From positions 1 to 11,198 of the forward strand of contig JBDRKP010000044.1 in NCBI GenBank assembly GCA_043813875.1: 11,198 nt of DNA. The letters are read 5' to 3'. Positions 108-11,198 of the stretch are shown here, piece after piece. The notes under the pieces are model-generated. The model was not told the origin of the DNA. It searched no databases and worked only from the letters and a program-made list of their open reading frames with translations. The position numbers and the translations under genes are program-made. Source of the DNA: an archaeon. GTDB lineage: Archaea; EX4484-52; B79-G9. Positions within the stretch are counted from its first letter, which is position 1. Every line of letters starts with the position of its first letter.

Positions 108-500
108 TCAAAAAAGATGGAAATAATTACGGGATATCACACTTTCTTTTTTTGCGAGGCCTTTGGCGTAGGAGCCGAAGAGGATGGCTAGCGGGATGTC
201 TTTTCTTTCTTGTATGGATGTTATTGTTTTTCTTAAGGTTGGGTATTTTTCGAGTGTCTTTTGCAGGCGGTAGTGTTCTGTGATGCAAGCGTAGTTTTTT
301 GCCTCGATGTTTTTTTTGAGGCGGAATACTTTGTTTTTTCCTTCCATTTTGTAGTCTACTGCGTTTTCTTTGTAGAGGATATCCATGGTCCTTGATATCC
401 TCATGTGGTTTGTGCCTATGGTTTTTGCGAGTTCTCTTATGTGGCTTTCTTTTTTGAGGAGGGCGCTGATCAGCTCAAGTTTGATGTCTTTTTGTTCCAT
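108..500 (-). pseudogene. wHTH + minimal nucleotidyltransferase (MNT) antitoxin, truncated at the catalytic motif
   Basis: Likely start MEQKDIKLEL at 500 (TTTAAA box about 25 nt upstream). HTH-like HIRELAKTIGTNHMRISR. ILFGSYAKGLAKKES stops just before the expected DxD of GSx10DxD; similarity is lost at about 141. Confidence 0.75.
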
Positions 501-501
501 G

Positions 502-530
502 TGTAACACTGGTGTTACAAGCGATTTAAA
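502..530 (-). promoter_or_regulatory. TATA box and palindromic operator of the MNT gene
   Basis: TGTAACAC-TG-GTGTTACA (502-519) next to the ATG at 500; TTTAAA at 525-530. Confidence 0.6.
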
Positions 531-561
531 TCTTCTGTTTCTTATCGTGCTGCATGAGGGA

Positions 562-942
562 TTATTCATTCCTTGATTTTGTCCAGTCAAGAAATCTTCT
601 TGCGCGGATCAGTAGCATGTTGGCGTCTTTTACGGTTGTCTCTTTTTCTGTGTATCCGAATTCACCTCTTTTTTCAAGGGCCTCTTTTATGACTTCTTTT
701 TTGTTTTCTTTGCTTGCTGACGCTTCTACGTGGAGAAGCACCGCTTCACGATGGTCTTTGCTCGGTCTTTTTCCTATGGAGTATATGCAGAATGCGTCGT
801 TTGAGAGTATTATCGCTTGCGATGAGTCGAATGCTGATGCGTTGTAGCGCTGTTTCTGGTAGTTTTCAAGGGCGGATGAGTAGAATTCTTCTGCTTTTTT
901 CATGAATTTTTCTGATTCTTCTTTTCTTGTTTCTCTTGCCAT
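562..942 (-). CDS. HEPN domain protein (partner of upstream MNT)
   Basis: 126 aa helical protein: FMKKAEEFYSSA..YNASAFDSSQA..SKDH..KRGEFGY (Rx4Y). Start overlaps the 3' end of the MNT gene. Confidence 0.8.
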   Translation of the reverse strand: MARETRKEESEKFMKKAEEFYSSALENYQKQRYNASAFDSSQAIILSNDAFCIYSIGKRPSKDHREAVLLHVEASASKENKKEVIKEALEKRGEFGYTEKETTVKDANMLLIRARRFLDWTKSRNE

Positions 943-1517
943 ATTATGTCCTCCAGTTCTTTGCCGTATATCAGCCGGTGGGTGGCTGCGACGTTGAGTA
1001 TGAATTCTTCTCCTGCTTTTGCTTTTTTGATGAATTCTTCTTCTGTCATGGGCAGGATGGATATGTCTATGCCTATGTCTTCTGTGAGCGCTGCGGAGAT
1101 CCTGTATATCTCGTTTCCTTCTATTTCTTCTTTTAGAAGGACTATGACGTCTATGTCGCTTGATGGCTTTATTCCTGTTACGGATGAGCCGAATATCGCT
1201 ATGCTTATGGGGTTAAGTTTTTTGAGGTGTTTTTTCAGGAGGCTTTCTATGTCTTTTTTTAGGTTCTCGTCCTGATTCAATGATCTTGTGATGGATTCTG
1301 CGAGTCTTGTGGATGAGAGTTCGTATATGACGCTTCGGCCGATGGTTCTTTTTTTTAGGAGGCCGCTTTTTTCGAGGTCTCTTAAGCATTCGCTTGCTCT
1401 TGATTTGGAGATGGATAGTTTTCTTGCGATGTCGGATACCTGGTGGGAGCCTTTTTGTCTTGTGAAGAATGTGGCTATGTTTCTTTTGATTTTTGTGTCG
1501 AGTATGTCTTTTAGCAT
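900..1517 (-). CDS. ArsR-like wHTH + MNT nucleotidyltransferase antitoxin
   Basis: Start MLKDILDTK at 1517 (TATATAAA at 1540-1547). HTH VSDIARKLSISKSRASECLRDLEKSGLL; NTase IFGSSVTGIKPSSDIDVIV. Confidence 0.85.
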   Translation of the reverse strand: MLKDILDTKIKRNIATFFTRQKGSHQVSDIARKLSISKSRASECLRDLEKSGLLKKRTIGRSVIYELSSTRLAESITRSLNQDENLKKDIESLLKKHLKKLNPISIAIFGSSVTGIKPSSDIDVIVLLKEEIEGNEIYRISAALTEDIGIDISILPMTEEEFIKKAKAGEEFILNVAATHRLIYGKELEDIIWQEKQEKKNQKNS

Positions 1518-1539
1518 GATATGATCCTGTCTTTTTGTC

Positions 1540-1582
1540 TTTATATATTTTTTCGAACATATGTTCGATTTTTCGAACATAT
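1540..1582 (-). promoter_or_regulatory. TATA box and palindromic operator of the MNT-HEPN operon
   Basis: TATATAAA (minus strand, 1540-1547); perfect 16-bp palindrome TCGAACATATGTTCGA (1553-1568); repeated TCGAACATAT at 1573-1582. Confidence 0.6.
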
Positions 1583-2089
1583 CTCTGTTTTTTTGTCTTT
1601 GGCTATCAGTGTGATTTTGTGTCTTAGATCTGTTTTCGAGGTCCATCCGATTTTTTTGGCCTGTGGATTGATAAAGGTAGGGGGTTGATGCTGCCGATAG
1701 AGTTGTCGGCTTTTTTTCGGGCATATCCTGAGATGAGGTGAATGAACGTGATCAGCGATGGATCTGTCCTGTGTTTTCCTGATGGTCTTTTGTGCGGATT
1801 GTCATTTGATATATTGCTGATGCCATGATCACTGAATGGGTGGGGCAGAGGGGTGTCTGGAAGATGATTTAATGTGGCGTTGATCGTGATGACGCCGCCT
1901 TCTATAGTATATGCTGCTGTAGTCTGATGGGGGGATCGCGCCGGAGAACAGTCTTGATTGAGTTTGGGTGTTTTTGTTTGTGTGGTCGGAGATATTGCCT
2001 TCTGGTGAGGGTCAATCTTACAGGATTTTGTTTTAGATTGTTTTTACTGAACCGTGGCTGCTAGAAGAATGAGTGAAAACAAGATGAGT

Positions 2090-3939: not shown

Positions 3940-4731
3940 CTATTTTGTGAGTTCCATGAGGACTGTCTTTATTTCGATGAAATCGAATCCCAAGACTCTG
4001 GCAACTGATGTCATGTCTTCATCAGATATGCTTTCTATAACGGATTTGGCTTTTGTCTTTTCATAAAATGTGAACAGGATATCTTTTAGGGATGAAGTGG
4101 TTTCGTCTGTGTAGAAGAGCAATGCAAACAGGTCTGAGATGTCTTTTATTCTTTTGTGGTCTTTGTCTCTTTTTGGGAGGGAGTTGAGTTTTGTGGCTAT
4201 GAGCAAGGCTGGTGAGGGAAGTATAACTTCTGTTTTGAATACTTTTTTGTTTTTTCTTAATATCTTATTTTCAAATGCATGTCTTAATAATGGCTCGTCT
4301 ATGGGCACAAAGCCGAATGTCGATGTGAATTGGGGGTGGATCGTGTCTACGATCGGGTCGATGTAGAGGGGGAATATGGATGGTGAAAATAGTTTTTTGG
4401 ATTCTTCCAATGTCAGTTCTTTTTCTGTTTCTGTGTGGTAGTTTTTGAATAGTCTTGAGCCCTGCCATTCAAATCCCTCGCCTTCAAGGTGCCGGGACAT
4501 TTTCGAGAATGGGCTGTCTTTCAGCTGGTCTTTGTTCCAGGTTAGGTCTATGTGAAATCCGAGGTCTATGTCGCGTGAACCCGAATAGTTGCGGCCCCGG
4601 GCTTTTTTGAAGTTGTTGTTTACGTGAAGATAGACTGCCCAGCCGCCAAGCAGTACAAGGTCCGGGTATGTACGGATTATCTTTTCGAGGTATCTTTCTG
4701 AGATCTCTGTTTCGTATCGTTCATAGTGCAT
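3940..4731 (-). CDS. AbiEii-like (DUF1814-type) nucleotidyltransferase, putative type IV TA toxin
   Basis: LVLLGGWAV..SRDIDL and LIATKL..R..KRIKDISDL motifs; overlaps the upstream HTH gene. Confidence 0.7.
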   Translation of the reverse strand: MHYERYETEISERYLEKIIRTYPDLVLLGGWAVYLHVNNNFKKARGRNYSGSRDIDLGFHIDLTWNKDQLKDSPFSKMSRHLEGEGFEWQGSRLFKNYHTETEKELTLEESKKLFSPSIFPLYIDPIVDTIHPQFTSTFGFVPIDEPLLRHAFENKILRKNKKVFKTEVILPSPALLIATKLNSLPKRDKDHKRIKDISDLFALLFYTDETTSSLKDILFTFYEKTKAKSVIESISDEDMTSVARVLGFDFIEIKTVLMELTK

Positions 4732-5308
4732 TTTTTTCTACCTTTGCCATGAGCATTTCTGCTGCTTCTTTGCAGACGCTGCCTTCTTTTAGGAGGTCGA
4801 GTATGAGCTGGGGCAGGGATACGATGAATAGTCCCTGCTTTTTTGATGTGTTGTAGAGTGCGTGGTCGTCGGCTATCAATATGCGGACGTTTCCTTTTCC
4901 TACAAGGCCGTTTTTTCTGAGGAGGGCGTGCCATTCAACGAGGTCTTTTTCTTTTATGTAGAAGTCTGTCCTTGAGGGGAAGAGGTAGTTCTGTATGAGG
5001 TTTTCTGCCCTGTATGTGGTGAGGGCGTATTTTAGTGTTGTTTTTTTGAGGAGTTTTTCGGGGTCTTTTAGCATGTATTCTCTTTTTTTGGGGGTTGTCC
5101 GGATGGTCTGCCAGTGGCATATGAGTTTTTTTATGTCCGGGACTGTGGTGCCTTGTATGAGGTTTTCTTTTTGGAGCTGTTTTATGTACTGGTGTGTCCA
5201 GGCGTATGATGAGTGAGATTGTTTTGATATCGCGTACATGGTCATGCCGCCGGGGTTGTTTAATAGTACGCGGATGATTCTTTCCTGTTTTGTGCCTCTT
5301 TTTGCCAT
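4721..5308 (-). CDS. AbiEi-like wHTH antitoxin/regulator
   Basis: Start MAKRGTKQERII at 5308 (TTTATAAA at 5330-5337). HTH TMYAISKQSHSSYAWTHQYIKQL; C-terminal YALT..A, VSLPQLILDLL..EAAEML pattern. Confidence 0.7.
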   Translation of the reverse strand: MAKRGTKQERIIRVLLNNPGGMTMYAISKQSHSSYAWTHQYIKQLQKENLIQGTTVPDIKKLICHWQTIRTTPKKREYMLKDPEKLLKKTTLKYALTTYRAENLIQNYLFPSRTDFYIKEKDLVEWHALLRKNGLVGKGNVRILIADDHALYNTSKKQGLFIVSLPQLILDLLKEGSVCKEAAEMLMAKVEKNAL

Positions 5309-5315
5309 ATGTATA

Positions 5316-5344
5316 GGTAACTGGCAGGGTTTATAAAGGTTACC
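5316..5344 (-). promoter_or_regulatory. TATA box flanked by inverted repeat
   Basis: GGTAAC-N17-GTTACC enclosing TTTATAAA, just upstream of ATG 5308. Confidence 0.5.
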
Positions 5345-5924
5345 GATATGATTTTTTGTTTTTGGGTTTGTGGCTGTAGTCGGGCTTGGATAAATACATG
5401 TCGCCCTGCACTTTTTTTGTGTTGTCTTGTTCTTTTTTTGCGAATAATTTTCCTTTGAGGGCGGATATGGCATCTTTGATGAATGTTTTTAGCTTTCCTG
5501 TAATGTCTTTTAGTATGGATACGATGTATTTTGCTGTATCGCTTAACTGATCTTTTTCGTAGCGTAGATTTTTCGGGATATCTTCTTTTTCTTCTATTAT
5601 GTCGTCTTCGGGGTTCTTTATGTATTCTATGAACTGGGCGAGGACGCCGACGCATAAAAGGTAATAGGCGAGGATGGCGGTCTGGTTGGCTGCGGATTCT
5701 GTCTGGAAGGCCAATTGGAATGCGCTGACCATGAGGAGGATGAGCGCGAAGGCGATGGGGATGCGCGAGTCCTGTTTTCTTATGACGATGATTGCTAATA
5801 GGATGATGAAGGTTGTGAGCTGGATGAGTTCGTTTTCTGTGAAGCGGGCGATGAGTATGGCTATGGCCGTGATTGCTATCGGGAGGTCAAGGATTGTCTT
5901 TAGTTCGTCTATGGGTTTTTTCAT
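5340..5924 (-). CDS. Small membrane protein (about 4 TM) with charged C-terminal tail, intact paralog 1
   Basis: Start MKKPIDELKT chosen by alignment to the paralog start at 9278; DSRIPIAFALILL..ANQTAILAYYLLCVGVL. Confidence 0.75.
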   Translation of the reverse strand: MKKPIDELKTILDLPIAITAIAILIARFTENELIQLTTFIILLAIIVIRKQDSRIPIAFALILLMVSAFQLAFQTESAANQTAILAYYLLCVGVLAQFIEYIKNPEDDIIEEKEDIPKNLRYEKDQLSDTAKYIVSILKDITGKLKTFIKDAISALKGKLFAKKEQDNTKKVQGDMYLSKPDYSHKPKNKKSYR

Positions 5925-6162
5925 TCTATCGCTTCCTGTCGCGTTCCATGAGGCGGGATGTTTCCTCTGCATGCGATTATTTTTTCATGATTGCAAATAT
6001 GTTTTGCAGGAATTTTCTTGAATGTTCAACAGATTCTTTGGCAAAAGGCTGATTAGCCTGTGGAATGGTGCGGTATGTAAAATGGCCTCTCTTCCATTTT
6101 TCTCTTTCGAATATGTTCAGGAGCTCGTCTGCGGTGAATATCATCTCTTTGTATATTTTTAA

Positions 6163-6244
6163 TATAGTGAATCCAACAACTTTTGAGCCAATGTTGGATT
6201 CCCATATACTCAATCCAATAATCCAATAGTTATTGGATTGACTA
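6163..6244 (-). mobile_element. 82-nt twin-hairpin insertion A2 in HEPN gene
   Basis: GAA CTA|TAGTCAATCC..GGATTCACTATA|TTA AAA. TA duplicated; 12-bp and 10-bp perfect stems; 77/82 identical to A1. Confidence 0.85.
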
Positions 6245-6365
6245 TAGTTCGAGGTCAAGTATCCCGGTGTCGACGAATTCTTTCCTGAATTCCTCGTAAG
6301 TCCTCTTGTGGATTTCCGGCGGTTTGGGGTCTATGCCTTTTGTCAGGAGCAATGCTTTGGCAGCG

Positions 6366-6438
6366 TAAAAAATCGTGAAATTTTGATGATATTGTGCAAT
6401 TTCAAGCTTTTTATTATGAGGATATACTTTTATGTGCA
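6366..6438 (-). other. 73-nt insertion D in HEPN gene with 10-bp direct repeat
   Basis: ATT TTT TA|TGCAC..CACGATTTTTTA|C GCT GCC. CGATTTTTTA repeated (6366-6375, 6439-6448); removal restores YYAIFYAAKA. Confidence 0.8.
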
Positions 6439-6536
6439 TAAAAAATCGCATAATATGAATGGGATATTACAGCACTGTAAAATGTGTCCCAGGTTTCGGC
6501 CTGGACTTGCTTTTTTATGTCTTCGCTAACAGATAG

Positions 6537-6618
6537 TATAGTGAATCCAACAACTTATGATATGATGTTGGATTCCCATATACTCAATCCAATAATCCAA
6601 TAGTTATTGGATTGACTA
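6537..6618 (-). mobile_element. 82-nt twin-hairpin insertion A1 in HEPN gene
   Basis: CTG ATA|TAGTCAATCC..GGATTCACTATA|CTA TCT. TA duplicated; near-identical to A2. Confidence 0.85.
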
Positions 6619-6620
6619 TA

Positions 6621-7283
6621 TCAGCAGGGCTTTTGCAAGCCGCTGTTCGTTTTCTGAGCGTTCGCGGTAAAGCTTGGATAAGTGAATCCATGTTTTTTCG
6701 CCTCGTTTATTATCAGGTAATAGTTTTGCGCCCCGAAGTATATGAGCCGGTTCTTATAGATCAGCTTTCCGTAGTTCTCTTCTTTTGAAAGAAGCATGGC
6801 TATGTATTCTTTCTGCGTGAAGACATAGGGATGCATTTGGGGGATCATGAGTTCTCCCTTGTTCTTCAGCGTGTTGTGGATTGATGTTGTGTCGCTGTCG
6901 GTGATGACTACTATGTCTAAGTCGGATTTTTTTGCCTGTGTCCCTTTTGCGTAGCTTCCGGCGATTATAAGTGTAAAATATGGCGTGCCTATCATCCTGA
7001 ATATCTCATCGATATTGGGTATTTCCCGTTCGCATGCTTCAAGTTCGTCTAATAGCGAGAGGTATTTTATTGCAAGGGCTGATTCCAGGTCAATCCTCGC
7101 TATCTTTGAATGCCCTTTGGTTTCCAGCTTGAGGATACCCTTTTTTGCAAGCTTTTTTACTGTGTTGAATGTCCATGAATAGGATGTTGTCTTTATGATC
7201 CTCGAGATCTCGTTGATTGTAAATGAGCCGGAAAGCTGTTTCCTGAAGATGTCGATTATTCTCTGTTCTTTTTTTGTCAGCAT
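6621..7283 (-). CDS. wHTH + MNT nucleotidyltransferase antitoxin
   Basis: HTH FTINEISRIIKTTSYSWTFNTVKKL; GSYAKGTQAKKSDLD (GSx10DxD); SD GGAGGT 7 nt upstream. Confidence 0.85.
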   Translation of the reverse strand: MLTKKEQRIIDIFRKQLSGSFTINEISRIIKTTSYSWTFNTVKKLAKKGILKLETKGHSKIARIDLESALAIKYLSLLDELEACEREIPNIDEIFRMIGTPYFTLIIAGSYAKGTQAKKSDLDIVVITDSDTTSIHNTLKNKGELMIPQMHPYVFTQKEYIAMLLSKEENYGKLIYKNRLIYFGAQNYYLIINEAKKHGFTYPSFTANAQKTNSGLQKPC

Positions 7284-7451: not shown

Positions 7452-8130
7452 TCATGCCGCCTGGGGTGGCAAGCTTTTTATTTGACAATAAAAAGGCTTC
7501 GAGCGCGAGTGAGATGATTTTTTGGGCTCGTATCGCTTTTTTTCTTCAAAATCATGCCACTTCGTGGCAAGCTTTGCTTGCTCTTTTCCGTACCCAAGCA
7601 AATGGTATTTTACGTCTTTCAAGGCAGGGTTTTTCGGGATTGCGTGTATCTTGTATGGCTTCTCTTTCTTTAGTTTTTGCCTTATGCGGGATAGCGTGTC
7701 TTTTGTTGTTTTTATTGCGGCGTCTTTGATGCCGTGGATTTTGGGGCGCTTTTTTGCCATTATGTTTTTTGGAATTTTCGGCATGATGCTCTGGGGTTTG
7801 TAATCGAGGGGGTCTTTTTTCTTTTTTCTCCAGTCGTAGATCATGAAACTTCTGTCCAGAAGATCCAGTTTCAAGCTTTTCAAGGCATTCAATCGGGGTC
7901 TTATGCCGTTGAAAATCAGGTAAAGGATGGACAGTATCAAAGTGGTGAGTGAGATGGCTGCGCCGATATCATGCCACTCTGCGGCTCGTACTCTATCTTT
8001 ATCTTTAAATCTCCTGTCTCGTTTATCCGGAAGCCGTTGATGACGGAGTAAAGGGGGGGGACGGAGCATACCATTTTCGACGAAACCGCAGTGCTGTTGA
8101 TTTTGCCGGTACATACATTCCATAAAAACC
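7452..8130 (-). pseudogene. 3' remnant of a membrane-anchored surface protein with Lys-rich tail
   Basis: One frame reads ..PLYSVINGFRINETGDLKIKIEYEPQ, then a frameshift near 7980 leads into WHDIGAAISLTTLILSILYL (TM) and the Lys-rich tail. No credible 5' part. Confidence 0.55.
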
Positions 8131-8507: not shown

Positions 8508-8519
8508 ATTGTGTTAAGT

Positions 8520-8846
8520 ATGAAGAATATATCATTTGAATATGACTATGGGGCAAATTATCTGATTGTCCATAAAAACAAACCTGCAAAGGCGAGCATA
8601 GAGCTTGGAGAGATAATTGTTGACATAGATAAATATAATCAGGTAACTGCAGTTGAAATTATGAATCCTGACAAGCTTTTCGGCATTCCAAAAAAGGCCC
8701 TGAAGAACATAGACGAGGCTAAAATAAGGACTGAATACAGGGACGGGATGTTCTGGATATTTCTGATACTCAGGATTGGTAAAGAGACAAGGCCGATAAG
8801 CATCCCGTTATTTCTTGAGCAGCCGGCATTAGCGGCATCAGCTTAG
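8520..8846 (+). CDS. DUF2283-like antitoxin candidate
   Basis: FEYDYGANYLIV..SIELGEIIVDIDKYNQVTAVEIMN matches the YD..D.L/I.D.D..G...GIEI pattern. Confidence 0.7.
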   Translation: MKNISFEYDYGANYLIVHKNKPAKASIELGEIIVDIDKYNQVTAVEIMNPDKLFGIPKKALKNIDEAKIRTEYRDGMFWIFLILRIGKETRPISIPLFLEQPALAASA

Positions 8847-8881: not shown

Positions 8882-9278
8882 TTATACGTTTTTGCCATCT
8901 CCCGGGTTTTTTACGTATTCCACAAACCGGGCGAGGACGCCGGCGCACAGGAGGTGCAGTAAAAAACCCGCGATGGTTTTTTCCACATACATAAATCGCT
9001 TACAGCGATTTAGTATAGTAGGCGAGGATGGCGGTCGCGTTTGCCGCTGTTTCGGTTGCAAATGCAAGCTGGAAGGCTGAGACCGCCAAAAGGATGAGGG
9101 CGAAGGCGATCGGGATTCTTGAGTCGTGTTTTCTTGTGACTATTATGATTAGAAGGATGATGAAGATCGCCAATTGGGTGAGTTCTGATCCTGTGAAGCG
9201 GGCGATTAGGACGGCTATCGCCGTGTTGATTATCGGGAGGTCTGCGATGGTTTTCAGTTCTTCCAGGGGGTTTTTCAT
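8882..9278 (-). pseudogene. Small membrane protein paralog 2, interrupted by a 61-nt insertion
   Basis: Aligns with 5340-5924. Removing 8955-9015 gives ..TAILAYY|LLCAGVLARFVEYVKNPGDGKNV (111 aa) versus paralog TAILAYYLLCVGVLAQFIEYIKNPEDD. Confidence 0.85.
8955..9015 (-). mobile_element. 61-nt twin-hairpin insertion C
   Basis: TAC TA|TAC TAAATCGCT GTA AGCGATTTA TGTATG TGG AAAAAACC ATCGCG GGTTTTTT ACTGCA|C CTC. Absent from paralog 1 (empty site near 5661-5663). Confidence 0.85.
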
Positions 9279-9339
9279 GCTATCTCTTCCTGTCTCTGGC
9301 CATGAGGCGCTTTTTGGTGTCTTCTATCTGCTTTTCGAT

Positions 9340-9683
9340 GGTGCGGTCTTCGAATCATGCCACTTTGAGTGGCAAGCTTTTGAATCCTTGGGATTCAAAA
9401 TGGCCATTTTTTGGGTTTGTATTTCTGCTTTTCTTCAAAATCATGCCACTTCGTGGCAAGCTTTGCTTGCTCTTTTCCGTGTCCCAAGCAAATGGTATTT
9501 GACGTCTTTCAATGCAGGGTTTTTCGGGGGCTTCTGTTTTTTTAGATTCTGGATGCTTGATAGCGTGTCTTTTGTTGTCTTTATTGCGTGGTCTTTGATG
9601 GCGTGGAGCGGGTTGCGCTTTTTGGGCATGATGTTTTGGGGTTTTTATTTGAGCGGGTCTTTTTTGTGGTCGTATATCAAACA
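9340..9683 (-). pseudogene. Degenerate second copy of the Lys-rich tail region (paralogous to about 7450-7843)
   Basis: Shared AIKTTKDTLS, PKNPALKDVKYHLLG and GKEQAKLATKWHDFEEK; extra base near 9481 relative to the 7591 region. Confidence 0.65.
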
Positions 9684-9712: not shown

Positions 9713-10129
9713 ATGGATGAAAAAACAAAAGATAGAGATATCATTTATCCGACACCTGAAAGAATCGTGGAATATAACCTTTTCGTCCTTACTGTGATTG
9801 ACGCGAAAAAGGGGGATAAGGCAGAGGTTTTAAGCTACCGCAAGATTGCTGATGTTGTTGAAGGATGCAAGAATCTGGAGGGAGACATCTACGACAAGGC
9901 AGCGTTTCTGATGAAGTCACTGATACAAAAGCATCCGTTTGCAAGCGGCAACAGAAGGACAGCGTTTATTGTCGCAAAAGGATTTTCGCTTGATAATCAT
10001 GCAAAATTCAATATTGCGGATAATCCTATGAATGCGAGAGTGATGATCGGCATAAGGGAGAGTTATTATACTGATCCGGAGATAAAGGAGTGGATTAGAG
10101 ATGGAACAATCCGAGAATTTAGACGATAA
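9713..10129 (+). CDS. Fic/Doc family toxin
   Basis: HPFASGNRRTA Fic motif; IYDKAAFLMKSLIQKHPF is typical of Doc-like proteins; 138 aa. Confidence 0.9.
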   Translation: MDEKTKDRDIIYPTPERIVEYNLFVLTVIDAKKGDKAEVLSYRKIADVVEGCKNLEGDIYDKAAFLMKSLIQKHPFASGNRRTAFIVAKGFSLDNHAKFNIADNPMNARVMIGIRESYYTDPEIKEWIRDGTIREFRR

Positions 10130-10278: not shown

Positions 10279-11198
10279 TCATGGGGCGGGATCGCGGATA
10301 TTTCTCAAAATGAGAAGAAGATACAGGAATGTCATTATCGATATGATGTATCCGGTGTAGGATGAGCTTTTTTTTATTTCCGTGTCTCCAACGTATTCCC
10401 AGATGTTTACGGGCTGGTTTTGTAGTTTCTTTGATGCGCCAAGGGTCCATGCGTCGCTGTATGTGTCTGCGAGGACGACGTACTTTTTTTGTGGCTCTTC
10501 TATGATGTAGCTGTTGTCTTTAATCTTTTCGTATGCTAGCGGGGTTATGTCTTCGCCGCCTGTCTGGTAGATCCTGTAGGTGGGGATGGTGTTAACGTAG
10601 AGGAGGAGGTTTGTGGTGTTTTTTATCAATGTGATGTCTTCCTGGGTGTTCAGGAGCTGCTCGTAGGGTTTGTAGTCTACTTCTTTTTTCAGGAGGATGT
10701 ATTTTACGTTTATTTTTGCGAGTGACTGGCCTAAACCGGTCGTGTTCCGGGTCATTATTGATTCTATGTATCCTGATCCCGGGTTGTTGCTGCTTGAGTA
10801 GATTCCTCCTGTTTCCATGTTGTCGCCTGTTATCATGGGTTTTTTGAAGAATGAGCGGGCTACGTTCGCCAGTCTCTTGTCTTTGTTTTTGTTCCATGAA
10901 TAGTCCATGTACTGTCAAAGCCACTGGCTTTGCCATATCCTCAAGGCAGGTCTGCTTGAGGATACTGGTGCCAGGGGAGGACGAGGGTGTTGAAGTCGCT
11001 TTTGTCGTTGCTTAAGTAGGCGTCCATCCCGTAGTAGTCCGCGGGGTAGTCCTGGGCGGGGAGGGCGCCTGAAAAGCCGAAGAACATCATGTATGAGTAG
11101 ATGACGGGGAGGATGATGAGGATGCAGCCTTTTTTTCCTATTCTTTCTGTACCGAGGCTGCCGAGGTAGGCGTAGGCGAGGACTGCGAGGCCTATGAA
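10279..11198 (-). pseudogene. GT-C-like membrane protein paralog 2 (5' end outside window), interrupted by a 53-nt insertion
   Basis: 11198-10963 reads FIGLAVLAYAYLG..YPADYYGMDAYL..NTLVLPWHQY with no stop, and joins MDYSWNKNKDKRLANV once 10910-10962 is removed; colinear with paralog 1 (LPWHQYMDYSW). Confidence 0.85.
10910..10962 (-). mobile_element. 53-nt twin-hairpin insertion B
   Basis: CAG TA|TCCTCAAG CAGACCTGC CTTGAGGATA TGG CAAAGCC AGT GGCTTTG ACAGTA|C ATG. CAGTA direct repeat; empty site in paralog 1 near 2705-2707. Confidence 0.9.

Follow-up and report, generated by a model that had tools for sequence, protein, structure and literature searches.

How does a gene come to be interrupted at several places and still be readable, segment by segment, as a single protein, and does such a gene still serve its host? 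The question is raised by an 11,198-nt stretch of DNA (the window in what follows) that constitutes contig C44 of a 1.64-Mb, 90-contig metagenome-assembled genome (MAG; 43.8% GC, genome 91.5% complete) from a groundwater archaeon of the DPANN group, with Woesearchaeota/Nanoarchaeia MAGs as its closest relatives. On the minus strand of the window, at 5977-6690 and directly downstream of a gene for a winged helix-turn-helix (wHTH) nucleotidyltransferase of the MNT type, lies an interrupted HEPN gene; 3' of the MNT gene the list of open reading frames (ORFs) contains merely fragments of 35, 69 and 93 aa. A preliminary description of the stretch had drawn attention to these fragments and had left a choice between a dead toxin gene that freely collects mobile elements and a toxin whose expression is gated by three removal events. 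The analysis below indicates that the gene very probably once supplied the toxin of a two-gene wHTH-MNT/HEPN module, one of the type VII toxin-antitoxin kind, and that it was inactivated recently.

The gene is preserved as four coding segments that contain no stop codons and that lie in three different frames of the minus strand, in the order C, B, A, C (Table 1). The segments are separated by two copies of an 80-nt miniature inverted-repeat transposable element (MITE) and by a hairpin mini-element. When the segments are joined by script, with 82 + 73 + 82 = 237 nt taken out, the result is a single 477-nt frame that stays open for 158 codons before its stop. Alignment of the uncut window DNA to two intact orthologues, one on metagenome contig L009 and the other in genome G022, produces three clean gaps of exactly 82, 73 and 82 columns plus one gap of 1 nt, and at the insertion points the orthologues have empty sites with a single TA or a single A/T-rich core. 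L009 carries a single TA at both MITE empty sites and there is room for one in both orthologues, and the frame is restored solely by removing 82 nt (80 + TA) per MITE. The joined protein is free of gaps at all three junctions when compared with 5 local homologues and with 13 further archaeal loci. The preliminary description was thus right in placing 237 nt of inserts in a 477-nt coding sequence, in finding the segments devoid of stops and in predicting that homologues would align across the junctions; it was also right that the neighbouring genes are free of inserts, as no other copy of either element family occurs elsewhere in the window.

Its claim of a full 158-aa protein has to be given up, since the joined frame starts with TGG at 6690 and the ancestral ATG is one base out of frame. 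Relative to both orthologues the DNA alignment places one extra base in the window at HEPN codons 4-5. The HEPN proteins of homologues begin with M-D-S or similar, from an ATG situated within the overlap with the end of the MNT gene, whereas the joined frame offers no ATG, GTG or TTG until a TTG that corresponds to homologue position 62. Because of the extra base, together with the missing in-frame start, removal of all three inserts would restore no full-length translatable HEPN. The same few bases carry a substitution in which the MNT stop inside the MNT/HEPN overlap is altered from TAA to CAA, and as a result the MNT protein now ends at a TGA at 6621-6623, adjoining MITE copy B, with a C-terminus that exceeds those of the orthologues by 17 aa.

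Table 1. Features of the interrupted HEPN locus and of related repeats (positions in the window unless a contig is named)
Feature	Position	Strand	Evidence
wHTH-MNT gene, presumed antitoxin, intact, 220 aa	6621..7283	-	Pfam, PADLOC, full-length alignment to orthologues
Ancestral HEPN start ATG, overlapping the MNT end, now one base out of frame	6689..6691	-	Orthologue starts, frames
1-nt insertion (frameshift) at codons 4-5, exact base ambiguous within these 7 nt, and substitution abolishing the MNT stop	6676..6682	-	Gap of one column in each orthologue
HEPN coding segment 1, homologue residues 1-24, with one TA of the target duplication	6619..6690	-	Frame translation, joining
MITE copy B, 80-nt core 6539-6618, duplicated TA at 6537-6538 and 6619-6620	6537..6620		Repeats, alignment
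HEPN coding segment 2, homologue residues about 25-57	6439..6536	-	Frame translation, joining
Hairpin mini-element (A5-hairpin-T5), 73 nt including one copy of the 10-nt direct repeat	6366..6438		Profile, DNA alignment
10-nt direct repeat around the hairpin insert, perfect	6366-6375 and 6439-6448		Repeat comparison
HEPN coding segment 3, homologue residues about 57-97	6245..6365	-	Frame translation, joining
MITE copy A, 80-nt core 6165-6244, duplicated TA flanks	6163..6246		Repeats, alignment
HEPN coding segment 4, homologue residues 98-158, and stop TAA at 5977-5979	5977..6162	-	Frame translation, joining
Longer modular MITE relatives	C30:15897-16063, C33:10573-10697, C47:6660-6886, C69:17451-17698, C72:8107-8294		Repeat comparison
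Tandem arrays of two or three hairpin mini-elements with a common A-rich core	C49:9378-9624, C11:2468-2623, C10:10695-10850, C42:33388-33659		Profile
Diverged internal duplications of the window, 75-96% identical	2123-2935 vs 10327-11198; 5662-5955 vs 9016-9309; 7517-7777 vs 9406-9646		Self-comparison

Insert-free relatives of the gene are readily found. Over 148 aa the closest homologue, that on L009, is 87% identical; three related genomes contain orthologous MNT-HEPN pairs, with HEPN proteins of 76%, 63% and 62% identity, and an intact relative within the same genome, the paralogue on contig C54, is 47% identical. HEPN homologues were located at 13 Woesearchaeota/Nanoarchaeia MAG loci, with complete ATG-started frames of 157-169 aa in 9 of them, and the spacing of matches at 3 further loci is compatible with insert-free genes. 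The neighbours of the MNT-HEPN module in the window were not found beside the orthologous modules, which occur in differing contexts across genomes, as expected for a mobile two-gene module; strict orthology is uncertain. The ratio of nonsynonymous to synonymous substitution rates (dN/dS) between the rebuilt HEPN and L009 is 0.06 (dS 1.36), a pairwise value that over such a long branch is blind to a short neutral phase and for which every homologue but the closest is saturated at synonymous sites. Nearly all of the divergence of HEPN has accrued under purifying selection and the low ratio points to damage that is recent. Residue changes specific to the window and to L009 number 6 and 3, respectively, all of them conservative, a count too small for interpretation of relative rates.

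The three separate HEPN fragments of the window match no Pfam family because they are too short. PF05168 (HEPN) is above its cut-off in 4 of 4 intact orthologues (24.8-32.0 bits, cut-off 22, through the N-terminal half alone), two of which are 87% and 76% identical to the window HEPN. A profile of 13 homologues searched against the PDB finds the archaeal HEPN protein AF0298 (E 3.6e-5), and the AlphaFold model of the G022 orthologue, with a predicted local distance difference test score of 92.7, is an all-helical bundle of seven helices for which Foldseek returns AF0298 (2hsb) as the best match, with a template-modelling score of 0.85 on the target, a probability of 1.00 and E 1.5e-3. The next matches are HepT-MntA complexes, TT1696, TM0613 and ST0689, none of the Foldseek matches being at E 0.001 or better. 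Membership of the HEPN family is therefore sound. Across the family there is an invariant block, EK-x-KR-x-x-FTY, seen as EKWKRG-x-FTY in segment 4 of the window, and with respect to the Rx4-6H motif the window has an R-x6-H within the stretch E-R-E-K-W-K-R-G-H, the first R of which is not conserved.

The partner gene scores 30.2 bits against the Pfam family NTP_transf_2 (cut-off 21) and matches PDC-M05A of PADLOC with E 9e-13. In the window and at L002, L003, L004 and L009 the MNT match stops at the HEPN start or runs into it, and an MNT match is present at 11 of the 13 MAG loci, at or overlapping the HEPN start in most of these. HEPN would be a toxin that is neutralised by MNT. A close known counterpart is the HepT/MntA type VII toxin-antitoxin system, SO_3166/SO_3165 of Shewanella (PMC7641770, PMC11586414), and the common features are an MNT gene immediately upstream of, and overlapping, the HEPN gene and a fold, that of the G022 model, which matches the HepT chains of 7bxo, 5yep and 6m6u. 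The HEPN considered here differs in being of the PF05168/AF0298 type, about 10-13% identical to HepT chains, in having a family in which the motif histidine is not conserved and in having a partner far below the cut-off of the MntA equivalog model, and toxicity and AMPylation are putative for the module in the window.

The two MITE copies are well defined. Each has an 80-nt core that lacks an ORF and 18-nt terminal inverted repeats with 3 mismatches, and copies A and B differ at 5 of 84 positions (94% identical), all 5 confined to a single hairpin loop. The two ends are palindromic in their own right, and the element accordingly folds into two hairpins, with z scores of -5.7 (copy B) and -4.8, and every reading frame through the copies holds stop codons. 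The subfamily has 5 copies in the genome, the three others measuring 125-227 nt and located on C30, C33 and C47, and a sister subfamily is spread over nine contigs. The longer relatives are modular, with variable small-hairpin cassettes between the end palindromes, many followed by AAGCTT, and one copy, at C53:28505, also bears a module of the hairpin mini-element. In-silico excision of the other six two-ended copies disclosed no convincing interrupted gene, save possibly an 80-aa ORF on C77. There is one DDE_3 (IS630-type) transposase locus in the genome, C62:11855-12985, made up of two overlapping frames (a helix-turn-helix (HTH) part and a DDE_3 part) with a 3' flank that is repeated at several contig ends.

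Stowaway-like MITEs are the TA-duplicating elements of the IS630/Tc1-mariner kind, and the MITE described here resembles these in being short (80 nt), in its lack of an ORF, in its terminal inverted repeats, in TA duplication, in the presence of multiple copies and in a dependence on transposase supplied in trans. Rickettsia palindromic elements are small palindromic repeats that reside within coding sequences in frame and are translated; in contrast, the inserts of 82, 73 and 82 nt in the window shift the frame and the MITEs have stops in all three frames. Among archaea, comparable short non-autonomous elements are the MITEs SM3A and SMN1 of Sulfolobus (PMC3718332). The window MITE is distinguished from the IS630/Tc1-mariner and Sulfolobus elements by ends that are each palindromic, by longer copies with hairpin cassettes and by the lack, among the transposase genes found, of a partner with matching ends.

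The third insert belongs to a different family, whose layout is an A-run, a hairpin, a T-run and a second hairpin that ends in an A-run. Searched with a profile of 7 copies, the genome gives 45 nhmmer hits, and related genomes carry the element frequently too. In the window it occupies a TAAAAAATCG site that is formed by the most conserved codons of the HEPN family, I-F-Y-A, and the fold of this copy is not significant (z -0.5). In several copies the left flank and the right end co-vary, a pattern that would be compatible with target duplication, and the tandem arrays listed in Table 1 would be compatible with repeated insertion into a target that is regenerated by each insertion. With PATE and the hairpin elements derived from IS200-IS605 the family has in common the absence of inverted-repeat ends, construction from hairpins, a target with an A/T-run and tandem arrays that share a core. 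The window copy differs in being flanked by a perfect 10-nt direct repeat; to our knowledge, IS200/IS605 elements make no direct repeat flanks. Of Y1 transposases, only a fragment of 78 aa was seen, at a contig end, and a search of the genome for TnpB gave no match. In narrow searches of the literature on MITEs, HEPN, toxin-antitoxin systems and DPANN we found neither element family described. As a separate observation, an ATG-started ORF of 69 aa (6242-6451, minus strand) reads in frame through the hairpin insert into HEPN segment 3, predicting a chimeric peptide without the conserved C-terminal block.

We propose that the HEPN gene was broken by four independent mutations. Two of these are insertions of the 80-nt MITE, each duplicating its TA target, and a third is the insertion of the hairpin mini-element at the TAAAAAATCG site; the fourth is the insertion of 1 nt at codons 4-5, which leaves the start codon out of frame with what follows. 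The upstream MNT gene is intact and has only been lengthened by 17 residues. Of the two possibilities offered at the outset, that of a dead toxin gene collecting elements is supported by the four independent lesions, by homologues elsewhere that are free of inserts, by an antitoxin gene that is whole and by sister copies that are decaying.

The other possibility, that of a toxin gated by three removal events, is rejected because all three removals would leave codons 4-5 frameshifted and the frame without a start before homologue position 62, and the stop codons in every frame through the MITEs also speak against it; of the two kinds of evidence that had been named as speaking against gated expression, an additional inactivating change is present in the form of this 1-nt insertion and a dN/dS near 1 is not seen. 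A reversible switch at the level of DNA, in which precise excision (TA-restoring or by single-strand 'peel and paste') would give a subpopulation the toxin back, can draw on exact junctions from which precise excision would restore codons, on well-preserved coding segments and on the presence in the genome of the Y1-transposase fragment and the IS630-type transposase. We nevertheless consider it very unlikely, as the frameshift and the absent start would outlast every excision, three independent precise events from two unrelated element families would be needed and no transposase end matches the MITE. Contigs assembled from four groundwater DNA runs (sequence-word shares 0.12-0.29) contain no joint that skips any insert, although these contigs are short, of low depth and uninformative on rare empty-site alleles. 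Removal at the level of RNA, with the inserts spliced from the mRNA as introns, for example by way of the archaeal bulge-helix-bulge, would similarly keep the frame if exactly 82, 73 and 82 nt were taken out, and the MITE copies do fold strongly. The likelihood of this is, however, vanishingly small: the MITEs fold as two separate hairpins without the 3-nt bulges around a 4-bp helix at the junctions, no bulge-helix-bulge motif is predicted when any of the inserts is folded together with its flanks, the fold of the hairpin insert is not significant, the frameshift would again persist and most other MITE copies yield no ORF across the excised site. A search of Rfam (E up to 1) gave no match at the HEPN locus, the sole match in the window being a weak one to sR1, far from the locus. 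Finally, repeats could have been mis-inserted into the gene during metagenome assembly, and it is true that repeats break the assembly graph of this 90-contig MAG and that MITE-B, the hairpin insert and the frameshift are without independent cover, the two inserts not being bridged by any of the short, low-depth contigs of the four runs. Mis-assembly would not, however, yield boundaries that coincide to the base with a duplicated TA or a 10-nt repeat and restore the frame to the codon, and MITE-A is seen in place in a 228-nt contig of another run, X4, that bridges both sides, with flanks of 74 and 70 nt and a single difference; the MITE-A allele occurs in contigs of two of the groundwater runs. 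An artefact of assembly is in our estimation extremely unlikely.

A number of points weigh against the interpretation of a dead toxin beside a retained antitoxin and have to be set beside the evidence for it. The function of HEPN as a toxin is one that we infer. Among 17 sequences the histidine column of the Rx4-6H motif is H in 7, N in 5, E in 4 and R in 1, and with the NCBIfam MntA equivalog model NF047752 the partner reaches 23 bits where 60 are required, so that solely the generic NTP_transf_2 passes. For the MITE, this 91.5% complete genome has yielded no transposase with matching ends, those of the IS630-type locus being unlike the MITE. The 1-nt insertion is seen in this assembly alone and no read-derived contig from the four groundwater runs spans 6667-6768. 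Further, the segments have acquired no additional stops and dN/dS is far below 1, such that the sequence by itself leaves room for some remaining constraint. Last, three insertions lie within 477 nt, the chance of such clustering being ∼4e-5 under uniform placement of the 5 + 45 copies in 1.64 Mb, and simple neutral decay therefore needs extra assumptions. The suggestion that the gene freely collects elements is consequently to be accepted only in part: the collection of elements by a dead gene is supported, and the three hits in 477 nt are left unexplained by uniform random insertion.

The clustering may reflect a mix of tolerance in a dead gene, local hopping, target preference and selection for loss. 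Purifying selection would remove insertions nearly everywhere else in a compact genome and a dead gene would tolerate them; the MITE may hop locally; the hairpin element may prefer the A/T-run that is present in HEPN codons; and loss of the toxin may have been favoured. The genome holds three HEPN copies, in the window, on C30 and on C54, with contiguous MNT matches beside all three. The paralogue at C54:17903-18418 (minus) appears intact and has a clipped 3' end, its last codons and stop being supplied by a hairpin mini-element that replaces the usual C-terminal residues. The third pair, at C30:4846-5692 (minus), has a truncated HEPN gene, in which about 82 residues are followed by unrelated AT-rich DNA; one stretch of 35 nt in this pair is identical to the window HEPN. 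Among the Woesearchaeota/Nanoarchaeota MAG loci, L024 has a HEPN that appears frameshifted or truncated, leaving the family frame after about residue 70, and the HEPN at L017 is without its N-terminal part and has no upstream MNT match.

One could imagine that silencing was selected, toxin loss being advantageous (as escape from addiction, or with MNT kept as an anti-toxin 'vaccine') and resident mini-elements being the usual tool in the lineage. The mechanics would be those of the decay proposed above, with the clustering due to selection and target preference and not to neutral decay. Such an origin would be in keeping with clustering far above uniform chance, with a hairpin element in two of the three HEPN paralogues of the genome, the third being truncated, and an MNT match beside each, with the coincidence of the element's duplicated core and the conserved I-F-Y-A codons and with the presence of the MITE-A allele in contigs of two runs. 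We regard it as unlikely, as lesions that follow the first are neutral and multiple hits need no selection, relatives have further HEPN homologues without interruption (the 3 further loci, and the 9 complete frames among 13 MAG loci) and one genome was sampled. In its general form, which we hold to be similarly improbable, mini-element insertion would be a recurrent, selected disarming of HEPN toxins in the DPANN lineage; since the A/T-run target of the hairpin element coincides with conserved and C-terminal codons of HEPN, toxin genes would be built-in landing pads, and orphaned MNT genes would be kept as protection against incoming modules. In a bolder variant the elements would leave precisely, giving reversible silencing at the level of the population, a course that in the window copy would be blocked by the frameshift.

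The picture of a degraded toxin beside a persisting partner has a precedent. In Sulfolobus islandicus, the HEPN genes of HEPN-NT pairs are reported to be often truncated and non-functional (PMC3718332). The likeness is that of an archaeal two-gene module in which the HEPN partner is degraded and the pair persists, and the differences are that in the window the cause of breakage is visible (two MITEs, a hairpin element and a frameshift), that the host is a DPANN archaeon and that the MNT has an N-terminal winged-helix domain.

The surroundings of the module may be described briefly. Genes of a toxin-antitoxin or defence-like type are plentiful in the window (111-1724, 3943-5473, 8511-8843, 9713-10126). 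These include a second nucleotidyltransferase (NTase) and HEPN pair, with a HEPN that scores 36 bits against PF05168, as well as a 274-aa wHTH-NTase, a weak AbiEii-like gene with an HTH neighbour, a DUF2283 gene and a Fic/DOC gene. Its internal duplications (Table 1) include a GT-C-type glycosyltransferase gene and unknown genes that flank the MNT-HEPN pair on both sides.

Taken as the remains of a toxin beside a retained antitoxin, the locus reveals no new regulatory principle and its fate is an ordinary outcome. It offers filled and empty sites, defined to the base, for two families of archaeal mini-elements that appear to be undescribed, with target duplications fixed at TA for the MITE and at a 10-nt A/T-rich core for the hairpin element, information that is useful for the annotation of DPANN genomes. 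For the biology of these organisms it would provide a clean and fully resolved case of toxin-antitoxin decay in a small-genome archaeon, in which the toxin was probably lost first, by way of resident non-autonomous elements, and the antitoxin was kept.

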